Shown: positions 13,705 through 49,179, numbered from the stretch's first letter. The stretch is DNA of 49,179 nt from Candidatus Microgenomates bacterium (GCA_049523135.1 JBEKNE010000001.1:717234-766412), one strand, 5' to 3'. The notes: generated by a model from the sequence alone, not told the origin. Program-made: numbers and translations.

Positions 13705-16700
13705 ATGCCTTCCCTACCCAACATATCACCCGAATTAATCCAAGCTTATCAGGATCAGATATCAAAATCCTCTTCGAGCGCAACTGTAAAAAGAAAATCA
13801 ATTGCACTAAATAGGTTTTTTGACTGGGCAGAGGAAGCAGGACATATTCCTCAAAATCCTCTCCAGCAAGTTCAAAGCTTGCAACCGGAAATACAAAGAG
13901 TTTCTAAATCTAAAAGAAAAATTGAAGCCAGCAGCCGGACTTATGCAGTAATCGGACTTACCGTAGCTTTAATTATTTTGCTTTTTCTTCTCACTTGGAA
14001 GCTCAAATTCCCCATTTCTTTCATTCAGAATTTTGCCCAAGTAAATAACACTGGCGAGGTACAAAATGTTGCCCAAAATGTGAGCCCAATTCCCGCAACT
14101 CCTGCGGCAAACCTTGCCTGGAATCTTTACGCCAAGCTGAAATTAACGGATTCCAATGGGATTCCAGAAGTCGGCTCACAATCTTTAAGCTTTAATCTCT
14201 ATAATTCGGAAACCGGAGGTTCTCCCGTTTACACTTCAAGCACCCAGATAGTAACAACTGATACAAATGGATCTGCTTTGATATCGATAGATAATGTCCC
14301 GAGTGATCTTTTCTTCCAAAATAATACGCTTTATCTTGAACCAAACTTTAATAACCAAGGTACTTCAACAGCCAGAATTCCAATTTCTACAGCCAACACA
14401 GCTGCAAATCTGGAAGGCTATTTCCCCGCCAATCCTGAAACCGGAGCGAATTCGGAGGAAATTCCCGTAATCAACTCCGACGGATCACTTCTCTTGGCTA
14501 GTCAATCCCCAATGGTTAAGGCTACTCAGGGAAATCTCCAAATTGAAGGCCAGGCAGTTGTTATTAAAGCTTCCGACGGGTCAGGCGGCAATATCGTAAT
14601 TAATCCGGACGCGAACGGATATGCAAAATTCCTTTTTGAAGGCAACAAAGGTAATTTCTTAAATGCCACAGCAAACAATCTTACAAGTGGATCACTCTAT
14701 TACGGAGTGGTACAAAATAATGCAACCGGATATTACCTTATCAATCTCCAAAGCGGCTCCACTCCGACAACCAAATTTTCAGTTGATTCCGTCGGAAATA
14801 CAAACATTACAGGAGATCTTTCGACAGGTGGAACCGACAGGCTGACGGCTACAGGTTCACTACAAAATATAACAGGTTATTCGCAAACAAGCGGTAACCT
14901 AACGGTCAGCCAAAATGCTGGAGATTATGCCTCAATAACCAAGAATGACACTGCCCTGTCCGATGTAATGGATCTCACTTTAAATGAAAACAATATTGCA
15001 GGATCCCACTACTCCACTTTGGTACTTAACCGCTATGGAGGCGATGACAACTCAAGAGCGCTTCTTGTTAACTCTGGAAACGCTCAGTTTAATGGGCAGG
15101 TTCAGCTTGGAGGATATACTTCTCTTCCGACGGCAATCGGACAAGGCTCACTCGTATTTAATACCTCCGACAGTAAAGTTTATGTCTGGAACGGGACAAG
15201 TTGGGTGGCAGTCGGTTCCGGCGGTGGAGGCGGTCCAAGCTCGTTTGACCAAATAATCTCCGGCACAAATACTTCCGCGACAATGGTTGTAGGTAGTGGG
15301 GCTTCCTTAGGTTTTACGGGGACAGGAACTATTACGGCTTCAGGACTTTCCTGCTCGGGATGCGTCTCCAATAGCCAGCTGACCAACTCCAGCCTTACCA
15401 TTAACACCGGCGGGATTCTAACTGGCGGAGGATCTATAGCTCTCGGCGGGACTTTAAATCTAACCGCAACCGAAGCTGACACTTTAGACTCCGTGACCGG
15501 AAGAGGTGCAACAACAACTAATGCCATAAGTGTTGGGAATTTAACCTCATCGGGTACAACAACTTTTGGAGGTATAGCCTATACATGGCCTGGAAGTCAG
15601 GTTACAAGCGGTTTCCTACAAACAGACGGTAGCGGGGGTCTCTCCTGGACTACCAGTGTCCCGGTTTCATCCATGGCTTTTTCCGGGCTTACATCCGGCA
15701 CAAATACTTCTGCAGCAATGGTGGTTGGAAGTGGAGCAAGTTTAGATTACACAGGAAGCGGAACAATAAATGCCAGTTCCCTTGAAGGAAGTACCTGGGA
15801 ATCCCCCGGAACAATCGGCTTAACCACTCCCAATTCAGGAGCATTCACCATCCTTTCAGCTTCATCTTATGCTACCGTTTCAGGATCTCTCGCTCTCGGA
15901 ACTGCCAACGCCAGTGCAGGTCCGGGAAATCTGGACATGAGTGGAAACTTAGTAGCTGCGGGGAATATTACAGGAACAACTCTTAATGGAACTACGGGAA
16001 TTAATACCGGAGTTGGCGCCGGAACGGCGAGAATCGATTCGACTGGAAACTTAACAAACATCGACACAACTCAATTTAATACTCAAACTTACACATGGCC
16101 GGGAAGTCAGGTTGCAAGTGGGTTCTTGCAAACTGACGGAACTGGTGGTCTTTCCTGGATTACAAGTGTTGCCGCAACCTCAGTCCCCTTCTCAGGAATT
16201 ACGGATGGAACAAATATCTCTGCCTCCATGGTAGTTGGAAATGGAGCTTCACTTAGCTACACAGGAACAGGAACAATTGATGCTTCCTCACTTGAAGGAG
16301 CTACTTGGGAAGCACCCGGAATAATCGGTATTACCACTCCAGCTGGAGGCAACTTCACATCAATTGGGGCAACAACACAAGGAACGGGCGCATTCACTAC
16401 CCTTTCAGCTTCATCCTATGCCACCGTCTCAGGTTCACTTGCTTTGGGATCTTCCAACGCTAGTGCAGGTCCCGGAAACCTGGACATGAGTGGAAACTTA
16501 ACAGTTGGCGGAACTACAACTCTCGGAGGACAAACTTACACTTGGCCAGGAATCGGCGGGACAAATGGTCAGGCTTTGACTACTGACGGAAGTGGAAACC
16601 TTGCCTGGAATGATGTCCTAACCAGTGCCACTGTTTTTTGGACAGAGTTAAACGGATTAATCTATCCAAAAAACTCAAGCGAGGATGTAGCTATTGGTGG

Positions 16701-19700
16701 AAATTCAACCTCAAGTGCCAAGTTTGCATTTACGGGAGTTGACGGAGGCCTTCCAACCGCTTCAATTGCAGGAACTGTAGGCAGCAATGTCGCAACTTAT
16801 TTAACGGGTAATGGAAATCTGGCAACAACAAACATGGCCGACCTGACCCTTGGTGGAAGCTCAACTGGGAATGTAAATATAAACTCAAGAGGATCAAATG
16901 CTTTGATTGCAAACGGAGCCAACTTAACGGCTGGAGGAACCCTTACATTTCCAAATTCAAACACACTAACTGGTGTATCAAGCTATCTCGAACTATCTCA
17001 AGGTGTATCAGTTGGGGCCGGAACAAACTATTACTTCAGTAGCACCGGACTTCTAAATGCATCAAAACTTCAGGTATCAGGAATTGCGGATGTGGTCCAG
17101 GCCTACATAAAAGCCTATTCAACTCAAACAAATCATATTCAGGAATGGCAAAATTCCGGTGGCACTGCCCTTTCGTGGATAGACGGGCAAGGAAATCTAA
17201 GAGTTGGTTCGGGTGCAGTTGATAACGGAAGCCTTCTTGACGTTGCCGGAGCTCCGACAAGTGATGCACTGGCAATCTTTAATACTACCGGAGGTACACA
17301 AAACATCATAGCGGCATCCGCTTCCGGGGCAACAAAAATGACCTTAGACCAAAACGGAGTCTTGAGCCTTTATAATTCGACTTCTTCAATTACCAACACA
17401 GCAGGAGATATAACCATCGGCGCGGCATCAGGAAATATAAATTTCTCCGGAGATACTATTCAAAACATCAACACGGTAAATGCCGGTTCGGGAATATTCA
17501 GCAATGTATTGCAGGTCAATTCAACAGGCGCACTTCAGGCTTATTCAAGATTCGGTAACGGAACAAGCTCCCACGGACTGGTTAGCCCGCAGGATGTTTA
17601 CATAACCGGAAAATTGGATGTAGGCGGAGTTTTTTACCTTTCTTCGAATGAAATCGGAAACGGAACAAACGGAACACCTGCCATAATTCTGTCCTCCGCT
17701 CCTACTACAACTGCAAATACCCTAACAGCAGGTAACTGGCTCGTTGAAAACAATGCCAATTTAGGACAAGCGACACTAATGGTTAACCAAACAATGGGCG
17801 GAGATATTTTTACGGCTTCCGCCTCAGGAACCCCGAAGTTTGTAATAGCCAACAGTGGCAATGTTGGAATTGGAACGGTAAGCCCAACTGCACTTTTGGA
17901 TGTTTCTGCCAATAGCACCAATACTGCTTCCGACTATACCACTCTAAAACTGGAAGGATCACAATCTACTGCCAACACAGGAACATTCTACGGAGAAAAT
18001 ATCATACCAGCATTTACCGCATCATCAGGAAATACTCTGGCAAATCTTAAGGCTTTAGTCTCAAATCCCCAAGTAACAAGCACCGGAACAGTGACCAATG
18101 CTTATAACATCTACTCAAGATTGGACAATACTTCTACAGGAACAATCAGTAATTTATATGATCTATATCTTGCCGCCCCGGGAAACACTAGTGGAACAAT
18201 TACCCATAAATATGCCCTTGTTACAGAAGCGGGTGCCGGTAATGTTGGAATTGGGACAACTAGTCCGGGAGGAGCATTAGATGATGCAGGGGGAAGTCTT
18301 TTCCTTTCCAATGCCACATCCAACCTAATATCTTTTGGAAACTCAGGCGTAGCAGTCCCCGGTGCGGGAAGTGCTGGAGAAAAAATACAATTATTCGGAG
18401 CCACCAGAGGAACAGTTGCAACTGCCGACTATGCTTTAGGTGTACAAAGCTCTAACATGTGGTTCAACACCGATGGTGGTTACATGTTTTACAAAGATGC
18501 TGCCGCAACACCTGAAGTAATATTAGATACAAACGGCAATGTCGGCATTGGAACAACAAGCACGATCACCCCACTCACACTAGGTCAAAATCCATCCGAC
18601 CTGGGTGGTTTGTCGTTTCAGAACACAACTGGCCAAGCAAACTCTCGAAATTGGAATATTAGAGACGATGTTACAGCTTTTGGTGATCTTGCTATTAGAC
18701 AATCTACAACACAAAATGGTACAACTTTCGCCACTAGGTTGACTATAGATCCCAATGGCAATGTTGGAATTGGAGCAACAAGTCCTGCTGCCAATTTGAC
18801 AGTTGCCAAAAATTTTAATACTACCCCAACCGCTCTTACTCCTAGCGCAAGTGTTGCGGTTGATTGTTCATTGGCAAATGTGTTCACCCTGACTCCAGGC
18901 CAAGCCGAATCAATAACTGCATCTAATATGGTTGCTGGCCAGTATGTGGATTTGATTATTCTTACAAGTGGAACAAATTCATACACTCTTACATTTTCAA
19001 CTGGATTTAAAACTCCAAACACAACACTGGCAACAGGAACGGTGACAGGAAAGTATTTTGCAATCCATTATATTTCGAATGGCAGCTATCTGATTGAAAT
19101 TGGACGTACATCAACTCAGACTGCAGTCGGAGCTGATATTGCTGAATGGTATTCTTACGCAGGTGAAAAACCCCAGCCGGGTGAAATTGTTTCTATTTCG
19201 GCAGATAACACTCAAATTGAAAAAACCGATCAAGCGTATAGTCAACAAATATCCGGCGTTGTTTCCACTCAGCCGGCAATAACACTTGGTCAAGAACCAG
19301 ATCAGGGAATCGTTATGGCTTTAACCGGTCGGGTTCCGCTAAAAGTTTCCACTAAGAATGGACAAATTTTGACCGGTGACAGTATTACTTCTTCCACAAT
19401 TGCCGGAGTCGGAATGAAAGCCGTCAAGGCCGGACAAACTGTCGGAAAAGCTTTGGAATCAACCAATAATTGGACCACACAAAGCTGTCCTGCAGTCGCT
19501 TCTCTCGATCAAATTAACTGGCCGGATGATGACGGAACCAATCCTAACCATCCTTGTTTTACACTTTCGGATGGAACAATGATTGGAAAAATTATGGTCT
19601 TTGTTAACCCCTCTTGGTATGATCCGGAAGTTTACCTCACAGACACAGGCAATTTAAAAATTGCCCAGGTCAATGGAAATTACCAACTCACAAACACATC

Positions 19701-20937
19701 AAATAGCAATTCCGTAATTGATACAATCGGAGCTTTCGCTAATGTTGTCGCCGCCAATATCAAAGCCGGAGCAATCACAACAACCGACTTTATAGCTCAA
19801 AATATAACAGCTGGCGCTGTTACAACTCAAAGCTTGGCAACAAATTCATTTACCGCTTTTCAGGGAACTGTTGATAATCTTTTGGTTAAGTCCGGCCTGG
19901 TTGCCTTTAATATTCAGACACAACTTATCTCCCCTGTTCCGGGCCAAACAAATGTTGCAGTCCAAATTGGCTCAGAGGCAACCCCTTCGGGCCAATTTGT
20001 AATACAAAACGCAAGTGGAAGCGCAGTTGCCGCTATCGACAACCTTGGAAATGCCACAATCAGCGGACAACTAACAACAAACGGGGCTTCCGTTTCAGGT
20101 ACACTTTATGCCGATAACATTCAGTCCAAGAGTTTGGATGATATTCAGGCACTTTTGACTCAAGTTGAAACCGATCAAAATACTCTGAAAAACACTGTGA
20201 ATTGGAATAGCCTCACGGCAACAAATTCAGCAAATTTGGATAATTTGGCAGTTTCCGATCTTTATATTACAAACCAGGCAGCTATAAATTCTCTCTCCGT
20301 CACAACCAGCATCGCACTGGGCTCCGATTTGGTAATCGGTTCCGACAATACTATTAATACACTTTCCGCTCCTCTCAAGATCCAGTCCCTTGCCATGGCG
20401 CCTGTTGAAATAATGGACGGACTAGTAACAATAGATACAAAAGGAAACGTAAATATTGCAGGAGATTTGGCAGTTGCAGGGCGAGTTAAAGCCGCAGGGC
20501 TTGATATAACCGCCGCTCAGATGACCGATCCAAACGCCACCACATCCGCTAATTTACTGACCTTGCAGGACGCCAGCGGAAATACCGTTTCGTCAGTTAA
20601 TTCATCAGGAAGTGCCCAGTTTAATTCAATTACCACTCCCCAACTTATTGTTGCGGGATCCGCCGATGCAACGGTTGCAGGAACAATTGTAAATGGAGTA
20701 ATTACGACAAATTCAACAATCGGAACCGCCACTATTCCTGCAGGCACTGCCGATATTACAATCAAGAATCCAAAAATCAGCGACTACACTTTAGTTTATG
20801 TCACCCCGACTTCAGGAACGCAGAATAATGTACTATATGTAAAGGAAAAAGGCACAGGTTACTTCAAGGTTGGTTTTGACCAGGCTATAAACACAGACGT
20901 GAGTTTTAATTGGTGGATAGTACAAGTTTCACAATAA
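13705..20937 (+). CDS. Giant membrane-anchored fibre-like protein: N-terminal recombinase core-binding fragment, TM helix, tail-fibre-like repeats, peptidase G2-like chaperone domain
   Basis: LIQAYQDQI...SSATVKRKSIALNRFFDWAEEAG; TM YAVIGLTVALIILLFLLTW; GNVGIGT repeats; ADIAEWY...GEIVSI...GVVSTQP...ALTGRVPLKV; G/S/T/N-rich. Confidence 0.75.
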   Translation: MPSLPNISPELIQAYQDQISKSSSSATVKRKSIALNRFFDWAEEAGHIPQNPLQQVQSLQPEIQRVSKSKRKIEASSRTYAVIGLTVALIILLFLLTWKLKFPISFIQNFAQVNNTGEVQNVAQNVSPIPATPAANLAWNLYAKLKLTDSNGIPEVGSQSLSFNLYNSETGGSPVYTSSTQIVTTDTNGSALISIDNVPSDLFFQNNTLYLEPNFNNQGTSTARIPISTANTAANLEGYFPANPETGANSEEIPVINSDGSLLLASQSPMVKATQGNLQIEGQAVVIKASDGSGGNIVINPDANGYAKFLFEGNKGNFLNATANNLTSGSLYYGVVQNNATGYYLINLQSGSTPTTKFSVDSVGNTNITGDLSTGGTDRLTATGSLQNITGYSQTSGNLTVSQNAGDYASITKNDTALSDVMDLTLNENNIAGSHYSTLVLNRYGGDDNSRALLVNSGNAQFNGQVQLGGYTSLPTAIGQGSLVFNTSDSKVYVWNGTSWVAVGSGGGGGPSSFDQIISGTNTSATMVVGSGASLGFTGTGTITASGLSCSGCVSNSQLTNSSLTINTGGILTGGGSIALGGTLNLTATEADTLDSVTGRGATTTNAISVGNLTSSGTTTFGGIAYTWPGSQVTSGFLQTDGSGGLSWTTSVPVSSMAFSGLTSGTNTSAAMVVGSGASLDYTGSGTINASSLEGSTWESPGTIGLTTPNSGAFTILSASSYATVSGSLALGTANASAGPGNLDMSGNLVAAGNITGTTLNGTTGINTGVGAGTARIDSTGNLTNIDTTQFNTQTYTWPGSQVASGFLQTDGTGGLSWITSVAATSVPFSGITDGTNISASMVVGNGASLSYTGTGTIDASSLEGATWEAPGIIGITTPAGGNFTSIGATTQGTGAFTTLSASSYATVSGSLALGSSNASAGPGNLDMSGNLTVGGTTTLGGQTYTWPGIGGTNGQALTTDGSGNLAWNDVLTSATVFWTELNGLIYPKNSSEDVAIGGNSTSSAKFAFTGVDGGLPTASIAGTVGSNVATYLTGNGNLATTNMADLTLGGSSTGNVNINSRGSNALIANGANLTAGGTLTFPNSNTLTGVSSYLELSQGVSVGAGTNYYFSSTGLLNASKLQVSGIADVVQAYIKAYSTQTNHIQEWQNSGGTALSWIDGQGNLRVGSGAVDNGSLLDVAGAPTSDALAIFNTTGGTQNIIAASASGATKMTLDQNGVLSLYNSTSSITNTAGDITIGAASGNINFSGDTIQNINTVNAGSGIFSNVLQVNSTGALQAYSRFGNGTSSHGLVSPQDVYITGKLDVGGVFYLSSNEIGNGTNGTPAIILSSAPTTTANTLTAGNWLVENNANLGQATLMVNQTMGGDIFTASASGTPKFVIANSGNVGIGTVSPTALLDVSANSTNTASDYTTLKLEGSQSTANTGTFYGENIIPAFTASSGNTLANLKALVSNPQVTSTGTVTNAYNIYSRLDNTSTGTISNLYDLYLAAPGNTSGTITHKYALVTEAGAGNVGIGTTSPGGALDDAGGSLFLSNATSNLISFGNSGVAVPGAGSAGEKIQLFGATRGTVATADYALGVQSSNMWFNTDGGYMFYKDAAATPEVILDTNGNVGIGTTSTITPLTLGQNPSDLGGLSFQNTTGQANSRNWNIRDDVTAFGDLAIRQSTTQNGTTFATRLTIDPNGNVGIGATSPAANLTVAKNFNTTPTALTPSASVAVDCSLANVFTLTPGQAESITASNMVAGQYVDLIILTSGTNSYTLTFSTGFKTPNTTLATGTVTGKYFAIHYISNGSYLIEIGRTSTQTAVGADIAEWYSYAGEKPQPGEIVSISADNTQIEKTDQAYSQQISGVVSTQPAITLGQEPDQGIVMALTGRVPLKVSTKNGQILTGDSITSSTIAGVGMKAVKAGQTVGKALESTNNWTTQSCPAVASLDQINWPDDDGTNPNHPCFTLSDGTMIGKIMVFVNPSWYDPEVYLTDTGNLKIAQVNGNYQLTNTSNSNSVIDTIGAFANVVAANIKAGAITTTDFIAQNITAGAVTTQSLATNSFTAFQGTVDNLLVKSGLVAFNIQTQLISPVPGQTNVAVQIGSEATPSGQFVIQNASGSAVAAIDNLGNATISGQLTTNGASVSGTLYADNIQSKSLDDIQALLTQVETDQNTLKNTVNWNSLTATNSANLDNLAVSDLYITNQAAINSLSVTTSIALGSDLVIGSDNTINTLSAPLKIQSLAMAPVEIMDGLVTIDTKGNVNIAGDLAVAGRVKAAGLDITAAQMTDPNATTSANLLTLQDASGNTVSSVNSSGSAQFNSITTPQLIVAGSADATVAGTIVNGVITTNSTIGTATIPAGTADITIKNPKISDYTLVYVTPTSGTQNNVLYVKEKGTGYFKVGFDQAINTDVSFNWWIVQVSQ
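15255..16620 (+). repeat. Internal tandem modules (~150-180 aa) in the giant protein
   Basis: GTN(T/I)SA.MVVG.GASL at ~15260, ~15695, ~16205; YTWPG at ~15580, ~16090, ~16537; SAGPGNLDMSGNL at ~15915 and ~16465. Confidence 0.85.
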
Positions 20938-20938
20938 G

Positions 20939-23900
20939 ATGTTAAAGAAATTTGACAAACAAACTGTCTTTTTAATTCTGGGGGTAATTATTCTATTTAT
21001 AACAGGAGGACTGTTTATTGTTTATAAACATCTCTCTTCTACTTCCCAACCGATAAATAATACAAAATATATCTTTTTGGACAACCCAACTACTTACAAA
21101 GGAGTTTTAGGCCTCTCATTCCCCATTAACACGACCATTGTTAAAAGCGGAGATATATATCAAAACACTACCAACCGCTTTAAAACTTATTTTAAATCCA
21201 GTCCAACATTAGAAAACAGTATTACTTTTAAAAATGACACCTCCCAGATTTCTTTTTACACTCCAGTTAGTCAAAGTTTTGGACAGCTGCAAAATCCAAC
21301 TCCGTCCGTAAATAGAAACGTCTTAACTTACCCGAATATATTTCCGTCTTTGGACCTCCAATACACGATTAGTTCTTCAAGACTACTTGAGGAATTTGTT
21401 GTTAAAGACAAGGAGACTGCTTTGAAAATCTTAGATATTAATCAAAGTGTGTCACTTACCAATGTTGACAAATATACAAAAGAGCCAGACGGTTCAATTA
21501 CTTTCTATTCAAAGGGTAATCCCACATTTATAATCCCCCAACCCGTTCTTTATGAGCAGGAAAACCGTGACATAATATCTCACGGCATTGAGTACCAAGT
21601 CACCGAAACTGGCAAAAATAACCTTCAAATAACCAAAAAAATTACTCAAGAAGGCGCTGATTGGCTTGCTGACCCCAAAAGAAAGTACCCTATTGTCATC
21701 GATCTTGTTATTGACAATTGCACTAACGATGCCAACACCACATGGATAAGTTCAGATACTACCCACACCACTCTTTCCAATTCATCTTCTATCTACCACT
21801 CGCCCAGTACTGGCTCTATCCAAGTAGCGGTCGTTGGTTCTATTGGAACAGGAGCTGACGGTAACTGTATTATGAACAATGGTACCAAGACCTTGGACAG
21901 TACTGTAGGTTCTTCCGTATGCAACAGTAGCTCAAGAACCACTGCATATGCCGTTAATTTTTCAGTTACCACCACTGCAAGTGCAGGCGCCACGTCCGTC
22001 ACTGTTTCCTCTACCCCAAACGGTCTTCTGGCCGGTGATGAATTTCTTATTATCAATCTTCAGGGAACTTCTGGAAATTACAGTTCTGTCGGTCAATACG
22101 AAACTCATACTATTTCTTCTATTTCCACAAATACTCTTAACTTCACTGACACTCCCCTTTTAAATACATATGACGGTACCACTCAAAAAATAATGGTTCA
22201 AAGAGTCCCAAATTTTGGGAATGTTACCATTTGCGGTGGAAACACAGGAGGTGGTTGCACAGCCGCTGCCACTTTAACCACTAGTGCATGGAATGGCACA
22301 AAAAATGGAGTGTTGTTTTTCACATCAAACGGAACAATTAACGTTAACTCAGGAGGGGTTATTACTGCTAACGCCCTTGGGTATCAGGGAGGCACTGGAA
22401 AAGGTCAAGTTAATGGAATAGGACCTCAAGGATATTCACGTCTCCCGGGAGGAAGTATTTCTCAAAGTGCCAACGATGGCGGAGGCGGTGGAGGACAAGA
22501 TAGCAGCCTTGGCGCAGGTGGCAGTGGTGGAGGCGGATACGGAACTGCTGGATCTACTGGGGGAGTGGGCGGCTCAGGAAGTGGTCCTGGAACCGGCGGC
22601 AGTGCCTACGGCTCCGACTTCCCCAGTAGACTTTACTTAGGTTCTGGTGCAGGAGGGGCAGCCGATACCGGAGGAAACGGTGGAGGTATTATCGCAGTCT
22701 ATGCTGTTACATTTACTTCCACTGGTTCTGCAACCTCAAATGGGGGTGGTGGTCATTCTGAATCCAATTGGTCAGGCAGCGGTGGGGGTTCAGGAGGCAG
22801 TATATCAATCTCAGCATCTTCAGTAACAGCAGGTACTATTACTGTTTCGGGGGGTTCCGGAGGTAGTGGATATAAAGGCAGCAATGGTGGAAACGGCGGA
22901 AGTGGGAGATCAACTACCTCGCCCACTCTACCAGCTCTTAATGACACAGTTACTTTAACCGAAGATTCAACGGTGGATCTTTCAGGAGTTAAATATATCA
23001 CCTTCTGGGTATATTCGGGGACAACCGGCAGTTTTGCCCAATTTCAATTCGGTCAAAGTTCAAGCTCGGAAAATACGGATCCTTTTACAATTAATGTAGC
23101 CAACCAATGGCAGGAAGTAACGTGGGATATTTCAGGCTTGGCACCAACAAGAAGCGCCATTAAATATTTCGCCTTTAAAATTACTAGCAATCCCAACCAA
23201 TTGACTTTTTACTTTGATGATATCGAATCCAATACCATACCGGTCGCCCCCACCCTTGGTCCTCCTTCCAATAATACTCAACACCTGTTGCCATCATCAC
23301 AGACACTTTCAATGAACTCAACTGATGCTGATGGCGACTACTTAATGTACAAGGTTTTAATTTGTACTACTTCCGATATGACAACTTCCTGCCTAGCGGG
23401 ATCTCCGTTTGATGAAACATCGTCCCAAACGGGATGGAGTAACCAAAATTATCCTACAGGCGGTCCTTATACTGCATATACTTCCGGAACAACAGCAGTA
23501 TTCACTCCTACCCTGAGCCCTGGTACCACCTATTACTGGGAAGCTTGGGCAATCGATCCTGGAGGAACTGATTTATGGAGTACAGTGAGTGCAAAGTATT
23601 CTTTTACTACAAATGCTGTGCCAAATATCCCATCTACCCCGGTTTCTCCTAACGGTGTTACCGGCCAGGCACTTTTACCGACTTTTACAACAACCACCTC
23701 CGATCCTGATGGGGATAGTATCAAATACAGGATTAAACTCTGCACCGACAATTCGATGGGTGTAACAGGTACATGCTATACAGCCGATCAAACAACAACA
23801 CCAACCGGCTGGAGTAACGGCAGTAGCCCATACTCTTCCGGAACGTCAGGTGTTTACACACTCCAAGCTTCCTTGGTTACCCTAAATGCAGGCACTACTT

Positions 23901-25072
23901 ATTATTGGGAATCATCAGCAATAGACCCAGCAGGAAGCAATACTTGGGGCAGTTATCAGGCCTCACCCTACTCTTTTACTACAAGCCAGATACCAAATAT
24001 TCCCTCTCTCGATTCACCCGCAAACGGAGCAACCCTGACTTCTACTCCAATTATTCTCAAAACCACAGGAACTGACAATGACAATGATTATTTAATGTAC
24101 AAAATTAGGATTTGCACAGATCAAGCAATGAGTTCCTGCTTGACGGGTTCTCCATTCGATGAAACATCATCTCAAACAGGATGGAGTAATCAAAATGCCA
24201 ACGGCGGTACTGCATATACTTCCAATTCCCCCGATCAACAGGCATGGTACACCCTTCCGTCAAGTGTTCTGTCCCAATTGCAACCCGGCACTATCTACTA
24301 TTGGGATTCATATGCGGAGGATCCGAAAGAATATATCAGTAGTATCTGGACGGCAGGAACCGGTTTATGGGGCAGTACCCAGACCATACCCTATTCATTT
24401 ACCATGGGGCAACCTAATGTTCCATCTGCCCTGCAAGTTGATGGAACTACGGACCCAACTTCCTTAACTGATCAGACTCCCAATTTTACGGCAATCTGCA
24501 ACTCGGGCAACTCCGGTGATACTTTCAATAAATATGAAATTATTGTATCTACCAGTCCAACTTTTAGCTCAACTACCTATGATTCCGGTTCCTCAGGAAC
24601 TTCAATGGCAAGCTGTACCGCAGGTTCAAGATCCTCAAACCTTGCCTATGTTGGAACTCTTGGCCTTGACGGAACAGTATATTATTGGAAAATCAGATTT
24701 TTTGACACGGGAGGATCCGGTACGTGGTCAAACTGGTCAACTGAACTAGCTACTTTTAAAATGTCATCTTCATATGACAACACCCCGTTAACTTGTTCCG
24801 CCGGAACTCTAGGGGCACAAGACTCATCAATTATGGTTCAATGGACCGACTCCGCCGGCGTAACCGCCTTTGAACTCCAAAGAAGTACGGATGGTGGAAA
24901 CACTTTTTCTGATCTTGCCGGTTATTCCGGAAGCGGAACCAACTATACTGATTCGACCACTTCTTCCGGTAATATTTATGAATATAGAGTTAAGGCTACT
25001 TCCGGAGGGGGTTCCGGTTGGTGTACAACAGGACTTGTCAGTTTACAAAGAGGTGTGTTTCAATTCAGATGA
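20939..25072 (+). CDS. Large surface protein A: signal anchor, WapA/RHS-type N-terminal domain, Gly-rich insert, CBM-like domain, FnIII/Ig-like repeats
   Basis: TM at N-terminus; WLADPKRKYPIVID; GGGG-rich block; KYITFWVY...FYFDDI; three ...GTTYYW...AIDP repeats; C-terminal FnIII-like unit. Confidence 0.75.
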   Translation: MLKKFDKQTVFLILGVIILFITGGLFIVYKHLSSTSQPINNTKYIFLDNPTTYKGVLGLSFPINTTIVKSGDIYQNTTNRFKTYFKSSPTLENSITFKNDTSQISFYTPVSQSFGQLQNPTPSVNRNVLTYPNIFPSLDLQYTISSSRLLEEFVVKDKETALKILDINQSVSLTNVDKYTKEPDGSITFYSKGNPTFIIPQPVLYEQENRDIISHGIEYQVTETGKNNLQITKKITQEGADWLADPKRKYPIVIDLVIDNCTNDANTTWISSDTTHTTLSNSSSIYHSPSTGSIQVAVVGSIGTGADGNCIMNNGTKTLDSTVGSSVCNSSSRTTAYAVNFSVTTTASAGATSVTVSSTPNGLLAGDEFLIINLQGTSGNYSSVGQYETHTISSISTNTLNFTDTPLLNTYDGTTQKIMVQRVPNFGNVTICGGNTGGGCTAAATLTTSAWNGTKNGVLFFTSNGTINVNSGGVITANALGYQGGTGKGQVNGIGPQGYSRLPGGSISQSANDGGGGGGQDSSLGAGGSGGGGYGTAGSTGGVGGSGSGPGTGGSAYGSDFPSRLYLGSGAGGAADTGGNGGGIIAVYAVTFTSTGSATSNGGGGHSESNWSGSGGGSGGSISISASSVTAGTITVSGGSGGSGYKGSNGGNGGSGRSTTSPTLPALNDTVTLTEDSTVDLSGVKYITFWVYSGTTGSFAQFQFGQSSSSENTDPFTINVANQWQEVTWDISGLAPTRSAIKYFAFKITSNPNQLTFYFDDIESNTIPVAPTLGPPSNNTQHLLPSSQTLSMNSTDADGDYLMYKVLICTTSDMTTSCLAGSPFDETSSQTGWSNQNYPTGGPYTAYTSGTTAVFTPTLSPGTTYYWEAWAIDPGGTDLWSTVSAKYSFTTNAVPNIPSTPVSPNGVTGQALLPTFTTTTSDPDGDSIKYRIKLCTDNSMGVTGTCYTADQTTTPTGWSNGSSPYSSGTSGVYTLQASLVTLNAGTTYYWESSAIDPAGSNTWGSYQASPYSFTTSQIPNIPSLDSPANGATLTSTPIILKTTGTDNDNDYLMYKIRICTDQAMSSCLTGSPFDETSSQTGWSNQNANGGTAYTSNSPDQQAWYTLPSSVLSQLQPGTIYYWDSYAEDPKEYISSIWTAGTGLWGSTQTIPYSFTMGQPNVPSALQVDGTTDPTSLTDQTPNFTAICNSGNSGDTFNKYEIIVSTSPTFSSTTYDSGSSGTSMASCTAGSRSSNLAYVGTLGLDGTVYYWKIRFFDTGGSGTWSNWSTELATFKMSSSYDNTPLTCSAGTLGAQDSSIMVQWTDSAGVTAFELQRSTDGGNTFSDLAGYSGSGTNYTDSTTSSGNIYEYRVKATSGGGSGWCTTGLVSLQRGVFQFR

Positions 25073-28000
25073 AAAACAAATTTATATATATTGTCGGTTT
25101 GATTGCTATTTCGGCAGTGGTGGTGTTTTTAGGTTTTTTTGCCATTAAAAAGATTATTTCTTCCACTCCTTCAAATTCCGGCAAATATATCTTTTTGGAC
25201 AACCCAACTACTTATAAAGGGGTTTTAGGTCTCTCATTCCCTATTAACACAACTATTGTTAAAAGCGGTGACACATATCAAAATACCACTAACCGTTTTA
25301 AAACTTATTTTAAAAGCGACCCAACCATTAAAGATGGTATTACTTTCAAAAATGACACTTCTCAAATTTCTTTTTACACTCCGGTTAATCAGAGTTTTGG
25401 ACAACTGCAAAGTACAACTCCTCATACCAAAGGCAGTACTATTACTTATTCAAACATTTTTTCTTCACTTGATCTTAGGTACACCGTTTCGCCCACAAGG
25501 CTTCTTGAGGAATTCGTAGTTAATGACAGGCAGACTGCCGAAAAAATTCTTTCCTTAAATCAGGAAGTAACCCTAACTAATGTAGATAATTATGTACAGC
25601 AAGCCGGAAGTATAAACTTTTTCAAAAACGGCAAAATAACCTTTTCTCTCCCCCAACCGGTTCTTTACGAGCAGGAAAACAGGGATATCCGTTCAAATGG
25701 AATTGAATATCAAATTACGGGAAAAGATAAAAATAATCTTGAGGTTACTAAAAAAATTACTCAAGAAGGTGCTGACTGGCTCGCCGACCCGACCCGCCAA
25801 TATCCTATTGTTATAGATCTTGTAATTGACAATGCAGATACTGCAAGTAACTGGGTAAGCTCAGACCCAAGCGGTCTTACGGTTTCCCAGGAAAATTCCA
25901 TCATACACGAAGGCACAGGTTCGGTTAAACTGACAGCCGGAGGTATTAGTACCGGAACGGGAGCTGATGGAAATATTACTGTTGATTCCAGTCACAGCAC
26001 GCCACCAACTTATACTATTAATGCATACAATTATATTACAGGCCGTTCGTGTGCAGACGGCGGTGACGCGGTCAATTATTCCGTTACAGCACTAACTTCA
26101 ACCTCTGCAACAGTTACCGGAGGCGGTGGGACTAATGGAGGACCGGCAACAGGCTGTCTTGCCACAGGAGATGAAATTCTACTCATTAATCTTCAAGGTA
26201 CTTCGACTGCATATACGAACGTGGGCAATTATGAAACGTTAAGAGTATCTTCTATTACTTCCGGAAACATAATCAATTTTACAACCGCAAAAACAAATTA
26301 CTATGGTAACGGAGCAACGGATGATACAAACATTGGCACCAGTTCAAGTAATCAAAGAGTCATGCTCCAAAGAGTCCCAAATTACAACAACGTTACAGTT
26401 AATACGGGGGTCATTTTTTATCCTACTGCATGGAATGGCACAAAAGGAGGTGTCATGGCCTTCAGAGCCAGCGGTACTGTTACTGTTACTGGAACGATAA
26501 GTGCAACAGGTTATGGATATAGAGGTGGTACAGCACCTGCAAGTCATGGTGGACCAGCAGGAGAATCTTTCTGTGGAAACCCGGGAGGAGGGAATGGTGG
26601 TTCTTACGGAGGACCATATGAAGGTGGAAATGGCACATGCGGTGGAGGTGGGGGTGAGTCGACAGGTGGAAACGGCACAATTGCAACAGGTTCAGCGACA
26701 GGAGGGGCGGGAGGTGGAGGCGGAGATGGAGCAGGAAGCACTTATGCCGGAGGAGGAGCAGGAGGCGGCGGAGGATATGGATCCCCCGGAGTACACGGAA
26801 ATGGCGGTAACGTAGTAGCTACTGATGGTTCAACCAACCACAGCGGAAATGGTGGTCTTGCTAGCAATGATGGTGGTGGTGGAGGTGGTGGTGGAAGCTT
26901 TGGATCCACAAATCTATCAACCCTATTTTTAGGTTCCGGAGCTGGTGCCGGGGCGGTTGGTGGCGGCAGCGCGGGCAGAGGAGGAAACGGTGGCGGAATT
27001 ATCCTCATTTTTGCCAATAATTTAAGCGTCACGACAGGTATAACTTCCAATGGAGGCAACGGTGGAAATGGAGGCGGTAGTAGCTCCGCCTTCTTTGGTG
27101 GAGCTGGTGGAGGAGGGTCGGGTGGGTCAATAAAAATTATTGGGAATACTCTTACTATTGGTTCAAGTAAAGTTTCTGCCACCGGCGGTTCAGGTGGAAC
27201 AACTGCAAGCAATAGTGGAGCCGGAGGTGCCGGTGGATCAGGAATTACCGCCATGTTTTATTCATCTCTCTCAGGAAGCACATCTTCACCTACCCCGGCA
27301 TACAATACTTATCCTTATGCCCTCAATGATACAGTCACTTTGACTAAGAGTGTAAATCTCTCCACAGTTAAATATATTACTTTTTGGGTTTACTCAAACC
27401 AAGCAAGTCAGGCAATGAGATTTGAGTTCGGGCAAAGTATAAATTCAGAGCAAACTTATGATTTTACTACCGGTTCGGCAGGTGCATGGCATCAAGTGCA
27501 ATGGGATATTTCGGGTATTAGTACTGGATCCAGAAGTGCTGTCCAATATTTTGCTTTCAAAGTTACAAATATCAGTAATGCCACCACCGTGATTTATTTT
27601 GATGATATTGAGGATAATTCCCCCCCCAATGCTCCCAGTATTGGCCCGCCAGGTAATGCTGCTACCGATCAAATTCTGTCGCCAACATTTACCACAAGTA
27701 CTACGGATGTTGATGGAGATACTGTAAAATATGAGATTGCGATTTGTGCCAACTCCGACATGGTAACCGGCTGTATATCGGGGTCTCCGTTTAGCCAAAC
27801 CTTGTCCCCCACTGGTTGGAGTAATGGCAGTACGCCTTACGCTTCCGGAGCGACAGCAACTTATATACTACAAACAACTCTTAATCCCGGAACTACTTAT
27901 TACTGGCGGTCACAGGCAATTGATCCGGGAGGAAGCGGTATATATGGTGCCTGGAGTTCTACCTATTCTTTCACCACCAGTTATGTACCGGGTGCTCCCA

Positions 28001-29046
28001 CTCTTAATTATCCGAGTAATGGAGCTAATGGTTGGCCACAAGCGCCTGCCGTTTCAATGCATGCAACTGACGCGGACAGTGATTACTTAAGATACCAAGT
28101 TGCAATTTGTACAACATCCGACATGTCAACCTCTTGTATTTCGGGTTCTCCTTTTACGGAGCCCTCAGGTTCACCCCAAACCGGTTGGACCGGGCAGGAT
28201 GCACAGAGTAGTACCGCATATGCTTCCACTCCCAGTTCGGGAACACCATTTGTTTTTTCCCCCACTCTTGCGGCAGGGACCACATACTACTGGCAGGCAA
28301 GGGCAATTGATCCGGGCGGAAGCAATACTTATGGTTCCTGGAGTTCAACTTATACTTTCACCATGGGACAAATAAATGTCCCCTATTCTTTGCAGGTTGA
28401 CGGATCCGTGAATCCACCCGCACTTACTGATCAGACTCCGAACTTTACGGCAATTTGTAGTTCCGCCAATTCCGGCGATACTTTTAATCAATATCAGATC
28501 CAAGTTTCCACTAACCCAAGTTTCAGTTCAACTGTTTACGATTCCGGAGGTGGAGGAACTTCCATGGCCAGTTGTACTGCAGGTTCAAGATCTTCAAACC
28601 TTGCCTATGTTGGCACTCTTGCTCTTGATGGAACAACTTATTATTGGAGGGTAAAACTTTATGATTCAACCTCGGCATCTTGGTCGGGTTGGTCAACCGA
28701 ATTTGCCACCTTTAAAATGAATTCCGCTTATAACGGAACCCCCACCAGCTGCAGACTTATGCAGGCCGCCGATGGAAGTTCCCTTACCCTACTTTGGACT
28801 GATATGACCTCCAATGAAACCGGGTTTGAAATCCAGAAAAATGTAGGTAACACAACTTTTTCACCTCTCATAACAACAGCGGCCAATGTTACAAGTTACT
28901 CCGACCCGACAGCTACGAGTACTACCTACCAATATAGAGTCAGGGCGGATTTTGCTTCCGGAAGCCCGACCGATTGGTGCACAACAACAATAACCAATTT
29001 AACAAAGGGGACATTGCAAATGCAGGGAGTAATCTTAAGTAATTAG
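25069..29046 (+). CDS. Large surface protein B, paralogue of protein A
   Basis: Same architecture; start moved to ATG 25069 (ATGA overlap with stop of A); 44/45 identical residues in the N-terminal block. Confidence 0.78.
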   Translation: MKNKFIYIVGLIAISAVVVFLGFFAIKKIISSTPSNSGKYIFLDNPTTYKGVLGLSFPINTTIVKSGDTYQNTTNRFKTYFKSDPTIKDGITFKNDTSQISFYTPVNQSFGQLQSTTPHTKGSTITYSNIFSSLDLRYTVSPTRLLEEFVVNDRQTAEKILSLNQEVTLTNVDNYVQQAGSINFFKNGKITFSLPQPVLYEQENRDIRSNGIEYQITGKDKNNLEVTKKITQEGADWLADPTRQYPIVIDLVIDNADTASNWVSSDPSGLTVSQENSIIHEGTGSVKLTAGGISTGTGADGNITVDSSHSTPPTYTINAYNYITGRSCADGGDAVNYSVTALTSTSATVTGGGGTNGGPATGCLATGDEILLINLQGTSTAYTNVGNYETLRVSSITSGNIINFTTAKTNYYGNGATDDTNIGTSSSNQRVMLQRVPNYNNVTVNTGVIFYPTAWNGTKGGVMAFRASGTVTVTGTISATGYGYRGGTAPASHGGPAGESFCGNPGGGNGGSYGGPYEGGNGTCGGGGGESTGGNGTIATGSATGGAGGGGGDGAGSTYAGGGAGGGGGYGSPGVHGNGGNVVATDGSTNHSGNGGLASNDGGGGGGGGSFGSTNLSTLFLGSGAGAGAVGGGSAGRGGNGGGIILIFANNLSVTTGITSNGGNGGNGGGSSSAFFGGAGGGGSGGSIKIIGNTLTIGSSKVSATGGSGGTTASNSGAGGAGGSGITAMFYSSLSGSTSSPTPAYNTYPYALNDTVTLTKSVNLSTVKYITFWVYSNQASQAMRFEFGQSINSEQTYDFTTGSAGAWHQVQWDISGISTGSRSAVQYFAFKVTNISNATTVIYFDDIEDNSPPNAPSIGPPGNAATDQILSPTFTTSTTDVDGDTVKYEIAICANSDMVTGCISGSPFSQTLSPTGWSNGSTPYASGATATYILQTTLNPGTTYYWRSQAIDPGGSGIYGAWSSTYSFTTSYVPGAPTLNYPSNGANGWPQAPAVSMHATDADSDYLRYQVAICTTSDMSTSCISGSPFTEPSGSPQTGWTGQDAQSSTAYASTPSSGTPFVFSPTLAAGTTYYWQARAIDPGGSNTYGSWSSTYTFTMGQINVPYSLQVDGSVNPPALTDQTPNFTAICSSANSGDTFNQYQIQVSTNPSFSSTVYDSGGGGTSMASCTAGSRSSNLAYVGTLALDGTTYYWRVKLYDSTSASWSGWSTEFATFKMNSAYNGTPTSCRLMQAADGSSLTLLWTDMTSNETGFEIQKNVGNTTFSPLITTAANVTSYSDPTATSTTYQYRVRADFASGSPTDWCTTTITNLTKGTLQMQGVILSN

Positions 29047-45989: not shown

Positions 45990-46165
45990 GAAATGACTGG
46001 CTAAAAGGCCACGTGGAGTCCTTTCTTTCCATATATTCTTTGGACGAGCAAAGAATATATGATAAACGTGTTCTTGGAAAAAGCAAAGAAAAATCGCCTG
46101 TCAGGTTCAAAAAACAAACCTTCAACAGGCGATTAACTCCAATTCTCACTTTTTACTTCCTTTAT

Positions 46166-46357
46166 CTATTTGGTTGTCCATCTTGTAATTTTCGGGCGGA
46201 TAATATATATCCATGTCAAGGTTAGACCGGCCAGTATCAGAGCTACTCCAACAATTCTTGACCAAAGATACACTGACCAAAAATATATTACGAGAAAACC
46301 GCCGACAATCATTATCAAGATTACAATCAAGGTTCGAACCATGTCTCGATTCTTCAT
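46166..46357 (-). CDS. Small two-TM membrane protein
   Basis: 63 aa; AAGGAGG SD; paralogous to 46354-46557. Confidence 0.7.
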   Translation of the reverse strand: MKNRDMVRTLIVILIMIVGGFLVIYFWSVYLWSRIVGVALILAGLTLTWIYIIRPKITRWTTK

Positions 46358-46557
46358 TTTTCCTCCTTTTTGGAAAACTTATCTATCAGGTTACCTACCC
46401 ATCTTATGGTTTTTGGGTAGATAACGGTTACCCAAGGAAAGGCGGCGCCGATAAACATTATTGTTAATCCGATGCCTGTTGACCAAAAATGTACAACAAG
46501 AAAGCCGCCTAAAAGTAGCACTATGGTTATGATAGTAACCAAGTTTTGGGCTCTCAT
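46354..46557 (-). CDS. Small two-TM membrane protein
   Basis: 67 aa from ATG 46557; AAGGAGG SD; ATGA overlaps at both ends. Confidence 0.72.
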   Translation of the reverse strand: MRAQNLVTIITIVLLLGGFLVVHFWSTGIGLTIMFIGAAFPWVTVIYPKTIRWVGNLIDKFSKKEEK

Positions 46558-46802
46558 TTTTCCTCCTTTAAGAGTTTGATTTCTTGGATCATCCACCCGT
46601 AGAATATTTTATTAAGCGAAAGGGCCGCAAGACCTGACACAAAAATTATCAATGCCCCAAAGAGAAAAGCATATCCGGTTCCTGTTTTCAACGCTAAACC
46701 GAATACATATAATAGAAAGTATAACGCGAAGGCATAGATGGCCAATATTACAATGCTTAAAACAAACAGTCCTAAAGCTGCAAGTAATTTTCGACTATTC
46801 AT
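46554..46802 (-). CDS. Small two-TM membrane protein
   Basis: 82 aa; AAGGAGG SD; two hydrophobic helices. Confidence 0.72.
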   Translation of the reverse strand: MNSRKLLAALGLFVLSIVILAIYAFALYFLLYVFGLALKTGTGYAFLFGALIIFVSGLAALSLNKIFYGWMIQEIKLLKEEK

Positions 46803-46831
46803 TTTTCCTCCTTCTTGGTTAACTTTTTGAT

Positions 46832-46945
46832 TTATTTGCTCTTTTTGTCAGATTTCCGTGTCTTCCACATCTTCCACAAACTGTAGATACTGATGCCAAG
46901 AGCAACTGCGATAAATGCAAAACCCAACAAATCTTGCCATAACAT
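46832..46945 (-). CDS. Single-TM microprotein (37 aa, not in the ORF track)
   Basis: MLWQDLLGFAFIAVALGISIYSLWKMWKTRKSDKKSK; GGAAAGGA 7 nt upstream; extended -10 TG-T-TATAAT at 47027-47019. Confidence 0.55.
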   Translation of the reverse strand: MLWQDLLGFAFIAVALGISIYSLWKMWKTRKSDKKSK

Positions 46946-47058
46946 AGCATTTTCCTTTCCGGGATTTTCCCTAATCAAAAATTTGAAAGTGCAAACGTAC
47001 TATTAGACGATTGAGGCGATTATAACACTTTATTATTTCCCCACAAAAAATCCCCAAT

Positions 47059-47582: not shown

Positions 47583-47700
47583 TTCTGGCGGTGACATATT
47601 TTCGCGGTCAGTTGCCCGACAACTATCGTCTGCGCTAAAGCGTTTTACTTCTGTGTTCGGAATGGGAACAGGTAGTGCCACTTCGCACTAACCACCAGAA
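47583..47700 (-). rRNA. rrf: 5S rRNA
   Basis: TTCTGGTGG/CCGCCAGAA terminal helix, CCCATTCCGAACAC signature. Confidence 0.93.
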
Positions 47701-47876
47701 CGATGCCTTGAAAATTATTAGAATTTTAAAAAAGGAAGGTCGCGTCCCACAAATGTGTGGGATCGCAAGAAATCAATCTATTCGCACTGGTAGCCTTAAA
47801 CCCTTACGGGTCTTCCAGCGCCAGCCGATTAACCGGATATTCTTTCCGGGATTTAATATGGAATCCTAATCTTGGA

Positions 47877-47911
<35 letters not shown>

Positions 47912-47991
47912 ACATGGGAATGTAGCTACCCGGCGTTACAGCTGACGCTATAACCGGCACACTAGGGATTCCCCCAGGGAGGTCCTCTCGT

Positions 47992-48676
47992 CAATCGCTC
48001 CTTTATTACTAAAGGGATTAGACTATACCTTCACCCTCCTTCGCCATTTAAGGCTACTGAAGGGGCTAGCTTTATTATGGAAATACTTTCCATCTCGCCC
48101 TTACGGGCTCAGTCGTTACGGGGATACCTTTTTTTCAGAAATTCTTTTACGAATTCTGCCGTATATCGCTTCTTTGTTGTGGCATAATTGTATTTAGAAA
48201 TTTCATCCGATATTTTAGCTATTGCCAAAATATTAAAATCTTTTTCTTTTACAAGTTTAAGTGCTTTCAATGTAAGACTAACTTGTTTTTTCTTGAAATG
48301 AACAAATGGTTTAAGGATTGTTAAAATACGCTCTACTGATTCAAACCCTTCGATTTTAAGCTCGGTCATTAAATCATTTCGATTGTAAATATAACCAATC
48401 CCCAACCTTTCCTTTATCCACTTAAGACTTTCATCGTGCCCAGTTTTCTGAGCAAACGAGATAATAGTTCTTACACGAAAACCCAATTTGGAAGAAGTTC
48501 TTGGCTGCAACTGCAACCGAACGCTTCCATCGCCATCAAAAAAACCAGCAATATAGGAAATATCTTCCCTCGGTATTGTCCTGTATTTAGATAGGACCAT
48601 CATAATGATGATACAGGATTTCACCGATTTTGGCTAGAGTGACGCTGAAAATTACTCTTCAGCGCAGCAAATTTCT
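47992..48676 (-). mobile_element. Group I intron after U2656 (E. coli numbering) carrying a LAGLIDADG ORF
   Basis: P1 CAGU/GCUG with U:G, R-like GTAACGACTGA, S-like GAAGGTATAGTCT, P9 hairpin, terminal G at 47992; 685 nt. Confidence 0.88.
48109..48603 (-). CDS. Single-motif LAGLIDADG homing endonuclease
   Basis: ISYIAGFFDGDGS motif; ISFAQKT..., LGIGYIY; likely start ATG 48603 or 48600. Confidence 0.92.
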   Translation of the reverse strand: MMVLSKYRTIPREDISYIAGFFDGDGSVRLQLQPRTSSKLGFRVRTIISFAQKTGHDESLKWIKERLGIGYIYNRNDLMTELKIEGFESVERILTILKPFVHFKKKQVSLTLKALKLVKEKDFNILAIAKISDEISKYNYATTKKRYTAEFVKEFLKKRYPRND

Positions 48677-48728
48677 ACTGTCCCCAGCTCTCCTCAAGAT
48701 TCCAACGCTTCCACAGGATAGAGTCCGA

Positions 48729-49060
48729 TATTATTGTTAACTCATAATCGCTTATGAGATCCGACTATATCTTAACCGTCAAAATTATTTAACGGTTTCT
48801 GACATATAGTCTGTGAGGATTTCCTTCGATTCTTTTTCAAATCGCTCAGGATCTTTCCTGCTGATTGACCGCACTTGATGCTTTGTCACTCTTACGAGTA
48901 GCACAAGATTCACCGGTGTTTCCAGCATTTAGTCAGATTTATTACCAACTGGAGTTGGTATCTTATAACTAACAGAGAATTACCTTCATTTAAATATAAA
49001 TGAATTCAAAACGTGTATAAGAACGACAGCTCGAATGAACTACATATATCTTATAGTTTT
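48729..49060 (-). mobile_element. ORF-less group I intron after U2604 (E. coli numbering)
   Basis: P1 GACAGU/GCUGUC with U:G, R CACAGACTA (48815-48807), S AAGATATAGTCGG (48773-48761), P9 with GCGA loop; 332 nt. Confidence 0.9.
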
Positions 49061-49094
<34 letters not shown>

Positions 49095-49179
49095 TCACTT
49101 TAACGGGCGAACAGACCGACCCTTGGCACCTTCTTCAGCGCCAGGATGTGATGAGCCGACATCGAGGTAGCGAACCGCG

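Follow-up and report, generated by a model that had tools for sequence, protein, structure and literature searches.

What interrupts a 23S ribosomal RNA (rRNA) gene inside the sarcin-ricin loop, and can the interruption be both removed from the transcript and passed on to other copies of the gene? This question is raised by a stretch of 49,179 nucleotides (nt) from a Candidatus Microgenomates bacterium (GCA_049523135.1, JBEKNE010000001.1:717234-766412), which in its whole length we call the window. Its right-hand end holds the 3' part only of a 23S rRNA gene, on the minus strand and interrupted twice. The second interruption, denoted here intron 2, is the subject of this report; an original prediction, made from the sequence alone, had described it as a mobile group I intron that separates U2656 from A2657 (E. 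coli numbering), at a site seemingly unfamiliar among characterised bacterial introns and with an endonuclease of potentially broad reach. We conclude with high confidence that window positions 48676..47992 hold a subgroup-IA-like group I intron at U2656|A2657, with an I-CreI-family open reading frame (ORF) in the loop closed by helix P6 (loop L6), and that the element belongs to insertion class 23IS14 of the Candidate Phyla Radiation (CPR); its splicing, target cleavage and homing are predicted activities.

Position and fold of the insertion in the sarcin-ricin loop

We numbered the gene against E. coli K-12 rrlH (NC_000913), in which AGUACGAGAGGACC begins at 2654, so that the insertion falls between U2656 and A2657. 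Intron 2 is 685 nt long (47992..48676, minus strand), and its minus-strand junctions read ...GGGGACAGU|AGAAAUUUGCUGC...GCGAUUG|ACGAGAGGACCUCCC. The exon upstream of intron 1 (49061..49179, minus strand; cut by the window end) corresponds to E. coli ~2486-2604, as judged from an Rfam LSU_rRNA_bacteria match of 111 bits and from the rrlH alignment; it ends ...GUCGUGAGACAGU at 49061, its end GAGACAGU being E. coli 2604. The middle exon (48677..48728, minus strand) starts UCGGACUCUAUCC, ends GGGGACAGU and aligns with rrlH 2605-2656 over exactly 52 nt, its upstream edge having been set by L143 and L002, two relatives in which intron 1 is absent and which read GACAGU|UCGG. The 3' exon begins at A2657 (ACGAGAGGACC...) and reaches roughly as far as the gene's 3' end (47750..47991, minus strand; aligned to E. 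coli 2657-2759, end approximate).

When the three exons are joined in silico they are colinear with E. coli 23S 2497-2759 at 77% identity, gapless at both junctions. Moreover, L127, L144 and L145, which are independent public assemblies, match the interrupted sequence base for base, and the arrangement is therefore not an assembly artefact. Intron 2 is an insertion inside the sarcin-ricin loop of the 23S rRNA gene. The original prediction was thus accurate in its placement of the insertion, in its coordinates (47992-48676), in its 52-nt middle exon matching E. coli 2605-2656 and in its other descriptive statements. For annotation, the 23S gene has to be joined here from at least three exons.

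Because Rfam alone gave only 28 bits on the window copy, we collected relatives of intron 2 and tested a hand-derived structure on them. Some of these relatives have no ORF and so expose the fold of the ribozyme. One such copy (L040, 249 nt) scores 50.6 bits with Rfam Intron_gpI, at the cut-off of 50, and another (L031, 271 nt) scores 45.3 bits (E 1.4e-10) with a helix assignment equal to the hand-derived one.

All elements of the proposed structure lie on the minus strand, and its helices P1 to P9 follow one another as is canonical for group I introns, P3 and P7 crossing. In P1 the exon CAGU (48680..48677) would pair with the intron guide GCUG (48665..48668), leaving a U2656·G wobble at the 5' splice site. 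P2 (48643..48664) is a hairpin with a GUAA tetraloop and compensatory changes in eight of nine pairs, and P3, formed by CUAGC (48633..48637) and GCUAG (48066..48070), is 100% paired with one compensatory pair. The P4-P5-P5a domain (48570..48627) comprises P4 (UCGGU/ACCGA), P5 (CCUGUA/UACAGG) and the P5a hairpin (48598..48610), whose loop contains the start codon of the ORF. The body of the ORF is enclosed in L6, where the ORF-less relatives have just 14 nt, by P6, which joins a 5' strand GGGAAGAUA (48561..48569) to a 3' strand UAUCCCC (48120..48126) and shows compensatory changes in four pairs. The joining segment J6/7, GUAAC (48115..48119), is invariant in 17/17 aligned relatives, as is the 5' strand of P7, which pairs GACU (48111..48114) with AGUC (48021..48024).

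Between P7 and the 3' strand of P3 stand two more hairpins, P7.1 (GCCCGUAAGGGC, 48097..48108) and P7.2 (AUGGAAAGUAUUUCCAU, 48077..48093), a stretch that Rfam handles as an insertion at that point in its alignment of L031. Hairpins at this place are the mark of subgroup IA. The P8 hairpin (48034..48064) is 100% paired, with compensatory changes in four of six pairs; J8/7 (UGAAGGUAU, 48025..48033) together with the 3' strand of P7 fits the Rfam consensus gAAGAUAUAGUC; and the P9 hairpin (48000..48015) carries a GUAA loop. The intron closes with a terminal G (omega-G, 47992) directly before A2657. The last intron base is G in every family member examined, the search pattern itself having demanded TG there. 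For P8, a first, bulged register contained a C-A mismatch and was dropped for the bulge-free register common to the relatives.

The fold was tested on 17 relatives, aligned with MAFFT after L6 had been trimmed to its closing pairs. Over the 46 pairs of P1-P8, 97.7% of the cells were paired, and in 21 pairs both partners had changed. In 500 column shuffles not one of the five measures used was reached, and sliding the 3' partners by 1-3 columns lowered pairing to 35-46%. The covariation was carried mostly by P2, P5, P6 and P8; P4 and P7 never vary and are therefore uninformative either way. P5a, P7.1, P7.2 and P9 were not kept in register by MAFFT; they do not enter the pair count and were checked instead by folding each of 68 distinct introns separately. 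Exactly three hairpins (P7.1, P7.2 and P8) lay between P7 and J8/7 in 64 of these introns, and P9 had a GNRA-capped stem of 4 bp or more in 68/68, with loops of the types GAAA (24), GUGA (23) and GUAA (19) on stems of differing sequence.

The guide also tracks the exon. A CAGU exon (C2653) is accompanied by a GCUG guide in 20 introns and a UAGU exon (U2653) by a GCUA guide in 53, with a single mismatch, so that the guide changes together with exon position 2653 in 73 of the 74 family members that could be scored. Because of this tracking, the fold, the terminal G and the U·G wobble that marks the 5' splice site, intron 2 is, on sequence grounds, a group I intron predicted to splice, and its extra hairpins make it subgroup-IA-like.

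In the mechanism that we propose, the folding of the pre-rRNA would pair exon CAGU2656 with the guide GCUG, forming P1 with its U·G wobble, and an exogenous guanosine in P7 would attack after U2656. The terminal G (47992) would then take the place of that guanosine in P7, and U2656, through its freed 3'-OH, would attack before A2657, so that ligation gives back an intact sarcin-ricin loop.

The insertion might instead be no spliced intron at all, being either an intervening sequence that is excised without ligation, leaving a fragmented 23S rRNA, or an assembly chimera. Bacterial 23S intervening sequences removed by RNase III do exist, probably also in CPR at other sites (PMC11270868), and the Rfam score of the window copy lies below threshold. 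This explanation would nevertheless have to account for a full group I core that covariation supports, with its terminal G and its U·G pair at the 5' splice site, and for the recurrence of the same sequence in three independent assemblies; in addition, a break in the sarcin-ricin loop would destroy the factor-binding site. We consider it extremely improbable, and continue with intron 2 as a group I intron.

The intron-encoded LAGLIDADG enzyme

The ORF (48109..48603, minus strand) encodes 164 amino acids (aa), from an ATG at 48603 in the P5a loop, followed by a second ATG at 48600, to a UGA at 48111..48109 in P7. The intact LAGLIDADG frame that had been noticed is indeed uninterrupted, and its product matches Pfam LAGLIDADG_1 (PF00961) well above the cut-off (46.1 bits vs 23.1; 9.7e-12), with one domain and one motif. 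The stop codon had been said to overlap a strand of P7, and so it does: GACU, the 5' strand of P7 (48114..48111), ends with the U of the UGA.

Among solved structures, the protein has its best natural matches in the homodimeric I-CreI, I-MsoI and I-CvuI (E 1e-12 to 1e-17, ~145 residues), the alignment with I-CreI covering 145 residues at E ~1e-16. The equivalents of I-CreI D20 (the Asp of GFFDGDG), Q47 (the Gln of QKT) and K98 (the Lys of FKKKQ) are kept, and R51 is replaced by His. These matches place the 164-aa protein in the I-CreI family, as a LAGLIDADG enzyme with a single domain that presumably acts as a homodimer. It should be annotated as an intron-encoded homing endonuclease rather than as a cellular gene.

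Against nine relatives, the ratio of nonsynonymous to synonymous substitution rates (dN/dS) of the ORF is 0.07-0.24, which indicates purifying selection. Part of this constraint is at the level of the RNA, because the ORF runs through the P5a loop, P5', P4', P6, L6, P6', J6/7 and P7. The ORFs of the family read the conserved P6'-J6/7-P7 RNA (48109..48126 in the window) in two different frames, ending in either ...YPRND, as in the window, or ...YTPVTT before the stop; the comparison covers the equivalent region in L002, L003, L064 and L071. The overlap between coding sequence and ribozyme core has therefore been solved at least twice.

The Chlamydomonas reinhardtii chloroplast intron Cr.LSU with its enzyme I-CreI (site L2593), like the systems of I-MsoI and I-CvuI, resembles the window element in being a group I intron in domain V/VI of the large-subunit (LSU) rRNA gene that encodes a single-motif LAGLIDADG protein of ~160 aa. 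Unlike Cr.LSU, intron 2 sits 63 nt downstream, in a bacterial host, and its target has another sequence. Most of the positions at which I-CreI contacts DNA are substituted in the window enzyme (K28Q, N30R, Y33S, Q38R, S40R and Q44S), as expected because the targets differ. The nearest paralogues in metagenome-assembled genomes (MAGs), L009 (Doudnabacteria) and L010 (labelled Acidimicrobiales), are 33-40% identical and lie between E. coli ~2585 and ~2600. Because these paralogues sit at L2593, the I-CreI site, the comparison suggests a site switch, in which an I-CreI-family enzyme colonised the position 63 nt further downstream.

The 2656/2657 family: mobility, host and target

A protein-based scan of species-representative genomes gave eight loci in which the sarcin-ricin loop is interrupted at the same place. 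They belong to Candidatus Woesebacteria UBA8517, a complete Woesebacteria genome, a Blackburnbacteria genome, two MAGs labelled Saccharibacteria, L003 (labelled only 'bacterium') and two MAGs labelled Gammaproteobacteria. Metagenomes were scanned with a pattern that joins the conserved 3' core to the 3' exon (ATAGTCTA-N14-44-TGACGAGAGGACC), and at least 120 contigs contained the 2656/2657 intron junction. From both scans at least 84 introns were delimited, at least 77 of them distinct, ranging from 249 to 847 nt; L043, L079 and L135 had been mis-delimited by the regular expression for the 5' junction and were excluded.

Grouped by length and frame, and among the matches listed, 47 of the 77 distinct introns hold a LAGLIDADG frame of 157 aa or more, 15 have no ORF (249-333 nt), 12 keep remnants only (359-607 nt) and three were set aside as mis-delimited or without the motif. 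Accordingly graded is the length of L6, from 14 nt in the smallest introns through intermediates of 91-327 nt to ~440-560 nt where an ORF is present. In L004 the C-terminus of the ORF is frameshifted, and L031 shares a near-identical exon context and much of the intron core with the window, the ORF being absent. This spectrum of full, decayed and ORF-less copies is, as read from the sequences, the pattern of invasion, decay and loss that homing endonuclease genes should leave. If it acts like I-CreI and the CPR enzyme I-ShaI, the window enzyme would cut an intron-less 23S allele near 2656/2657, and repair from the intron-bearing copy would spread the intron. The presence, decay and loss of the ORF across the family support the original prediction of a mobile element, and the covariation, which surpassed all 500 shuffles, shows that the group I fold is not due to chance. 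No uninterrupted 2656/2657 allele was found in a close relative by our searches, which had selected for the interrupted form.

It is possible that the intron splices but is immobile, its LAGLIDADG protein being dead as an endonuclease or kept mainly as a maturase, so that the element is a vertically inherited fixture. Tsurumaki et al. indeed propose an ancient acquisition and retention of the CPR ORFs (PMC11270868). The low dN/dS is a sign of constraint that does not tell which activity is preserved, the overlap of the ORF with P5a, P5', P4', P6 and P7 places part of that constraint on the RNA, the residue at the R51 position is His, and CPR genomes usually have one rRNA operon, offering few targets per cell. 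Set against this, the catalytic Asp has been kept, as have the equivalents of Q47 and K98, and the gain, decay and loss of the ORF are what a homing cycle predicts. Many relatives have lost or degraded the ORF and kept the ribozyme, from which it appears that splicing generally would not need the protein; and near-identical exon contexts (window vs L031) hold introns with and without an ORF. We consider an immobile intron unlikely, and prefer the reading of intron 2 as a homing element.

Some observations sit uneasily with an intron that splices and homes. The window copy falls short of the Rfam gathering score (Intron_gpI, RF00028; 28 bits, E 1e-4, gathering score 50) and matches in its 3' third only, the model being interrupted by the long ORF. 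Intron 2 shows no evident P10 pairing with the 3' exon, and no obvious Shine-Dalgarno sequence precedes the ATG at 48603. Some of the relatives have an ORF that begins only downstream, past the GAGGGAAGG of P4'/P6. Lastly, the target is weakly palindromic, with at most 5/11 symmetric positions (centres +2 and +4), which is low for a homodimeric enzyme.

Usual examples of group I introns in bacterial 23S genes are those of Coxiella, Simkania, Thermotoga and cyanobacteria, at about L1917, L1931 and L1951. Like intron 2, the other known bacterial 23S group I introns occupy conserved sites and some carry LAGLIDADG genes; none lies in the sarcin-ricin loop according to PMC11270868. That survey (Tsurumaki et al. 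2024, J Bacteriol) examined 348 CPR 23S genes and found insertions in 82% of them, concentrated at 14 sites (PMC11270868). LAGLIDADG_1 ORFs predominate at 1917, 1931, 1952, 2593, 2604 and 2657, that is 23IS6-8 and 23IS12-14, and the enzymes are typically single-domain proteins of ~180 aa (PMC11270868). Position 2657 is 23IS14, one of the 14 frequent CPR sites, and neither it nor 23IS13 had been reported in other bacteria (PMC11270868).

Intron 2 shares with the 23IS14 class its insertion point (within the ±1 nt of the survey), its group-I-like character, its CPR host and its single-domain LAGLIDADG_1 ORF of ~160-180 aa, and the window holds the pair 23IS13 (2604) and 23IS14 (2657) that co-occurs in the CPR survey. 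Class 23IS14 is given in PMC11270868 without secondary structure, splice-site definition or enzyme assay, and otherwise does not differ in substance from the window element. The suggestion that the site was unfamiliar among bacterial introns thus stands for bacteria outside CPR and falls for CPR itself: the catalogue lists 2657 as a frequent site (PMC11270868), and our own scan finds it on at least 120 contigs, so that the site is not novel. Outside CPR, we found no report of the 2656/2657 site in the literature on L2654-L2657 labels or on group I introns and 'sarcin', and a survey of archaeal group I introns does not mention it.

The element therefore belongs to an already catalogued insertion class and is ordinary for its host group. 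It represents a clean, fully delimited case of a known phenomenon, that CPR rRNA genes carry many endonuclease-bearing group I introns. To the published catalogue our analysis adds the precise junction, U2656|A2657; an IA-type structure, backed by covariation, in which the ORF lies in L6 and overlaps P5a-P4' and P6'-P7; and the covariation of guide and exon, together with the spectrum of ORF decay and the homing cycle that it suggests at 2656/2657. As for the enzyme, the only biochemical precedent in the class is I-ShaI, which cleaves its insertion site (23IS7) and dimerises (PMC11270868). I-ShaI is likewise a single-domain LAGLIDADG_1 enzyme encoded in a CPR rRNA intron; it differs in insertion site and target, and the 2657 enzyme is known here from its sequence.

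The host itself appears to be Woesebacteria-like (Microgenomates, CPR), because Candidatus Woesebacteria UBA8517 has an enzyme 91% identical to that of the window and shares the 23S-5S-S1 synteny at 74-85% nucleotide identity. Two of the relatives, L002 (CAZBTH010000023.1) and L004 (CAZYCE010000009.1), are labelled 'uncultured Gammaproteobacteria' and show the 23S-5S(-S1) arrangement of the window with rRNA 76-87% identical; they are probably mis-binned or mislabelled CPR contigs. Two MAGs labelled Candidatus Saccharibacteria (L007 and L008) hold a full 2656/2657 intron with an intact LAGLIDADG ORF 36-41% identical to that of the window, and Saccharibacteria rRNA was nearly devoid of introns and endonuclease genes in the 2024 survey (PMC11270868).

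How far could the enzyme reach? Its target had been counted among the most conserved DNA sequences, and this holds for one part of it. Only AGU|ACGAGAGGACC is universal (its invariance among the fetched loci was partly imposed by the search pattern and the 5'-junction regular expression, and is not independent evidence), and the 5' half of a typical LAGLIDADG site of 20-22 bp falls in the variable stem of helix 95, where column identity at -4 to -15 is 50-70% among the fetched targets. The intron-less target predicted for the window enzyme is GAGCTGGGGACAGTACGAGAGGACCTCCCTGG. Compared with E. coli (CTGCTCCTAGT|ACGAGAGGACC), the window target (CTGGGGACAGT|ACGAGAGGACC) differs at 5/22 positions (±11), that is at 5/11 positions of the 5' side, and at 9/28 over ±14; all differences are on the 5' side, in the helix-95 stem. 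The hexamer GACAGU, common to the 2656/2657 and I-CreI sites, was tried as a guide to the centre of the cut and rejected, as it puts the centre 7 nt off the insertion and leaves the other half-site mismatched.

These data bear on the proposal, put forward in the original prediction, that the enzyme is a broad-range nuclease for sarcin-ricin-loop DNA, which would cut 23S/28S genes of distant taxa, including that of a bacterial host of the CPR cell. The differences from E. coli just described speak against it for the window copy, as do the intron subfamilies, which follow the exon type of their hosts and so suggest spread mostly within lineages. All eight genome matches (8/8) are CPR or CPR-like contigs, the two labelled Gammaproteobacteria having the rRNA-5S-S1 synteny of the window, and the enzyme has no secretion signal or delivery route. 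The proposal draws on the universal 3' half ACGAGAGGACC and the AGU that precedes it, on the fact that I-ShaI also cut a second CPR target of different sequence (PMC11270868), and on two family members with intact ORFs, L057 and L122, whose ±11-bp targets are 1 bp from that of E. coli. We regard such a broad-range nuclease as highly improbable.

Because of the targets of L057 and L122, cutting across phyla is conceivable for the family, and less so for the window copy, which we continue to read as a homing enzyme of CPR 23S genes. More generally, the 2656/2657 enzymes may form an uncharacterised I-CreI-family lineage that reads sarcin-ricin-loop DNA, some members of which might cut or home into non-CPR 23S genes, or damage the ribosomal DNA (rDNA) of bacteria hosting CPR cells; we think this speculative and quite unlikely. 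Since half of their target is universal, these enzymes could prospectively interest the study and engineering of I-CreI-type nucleases. Taken together, the observation made in the original prediction is confirmed and its interpretation is partly supported.

Intron 1 and other features of the window

The first interruption of the 23S gene, intron 1, is an ORF-less group I intron of 332 nt between U2604 and U2605 (48729..49060, minus strand; Rfam Intron_gpI, 92 bits). Its boundaries were set by the intron-less relatives L143 and L002, and it is present in the window and absent from close relatives. It ends ...UUAACAAUAAUA|UCGG, so that its last base (48729) is A and not the canonical terminal G; the nearest G upstream lies at 48741, 12 nt before the exon. 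Elsewhere the same tail ends in G in 12 distinct sequences and in A in three (window/L127, L003 and L088). A probably spurious ATG ORF of 47 aa inside intron 1 (48785..48928, minus strand) covers a stretch that Rfam assigns to the ribozyme core.

Downstream of the 23S gene lies a 5S rRNA gene (47583..47699, minus strand; Rfam, 79.7 bits). Far from the rRNA genes, three consecutive giant ORFs of 2410, 1377 and 1342 aa occupy 13705..29046 on the plus strand; the first has no Pfam match, and in each of the others Pfam finds nothing but a C-terminal Ig_Rha78A_N domain. At 46160..46950 (minus strand) we noted by eye four tandem, very small, hydrophobic-looking ORFs, each behind a strong ribosome-binding site of the AAGGAGGAAAAATG type.

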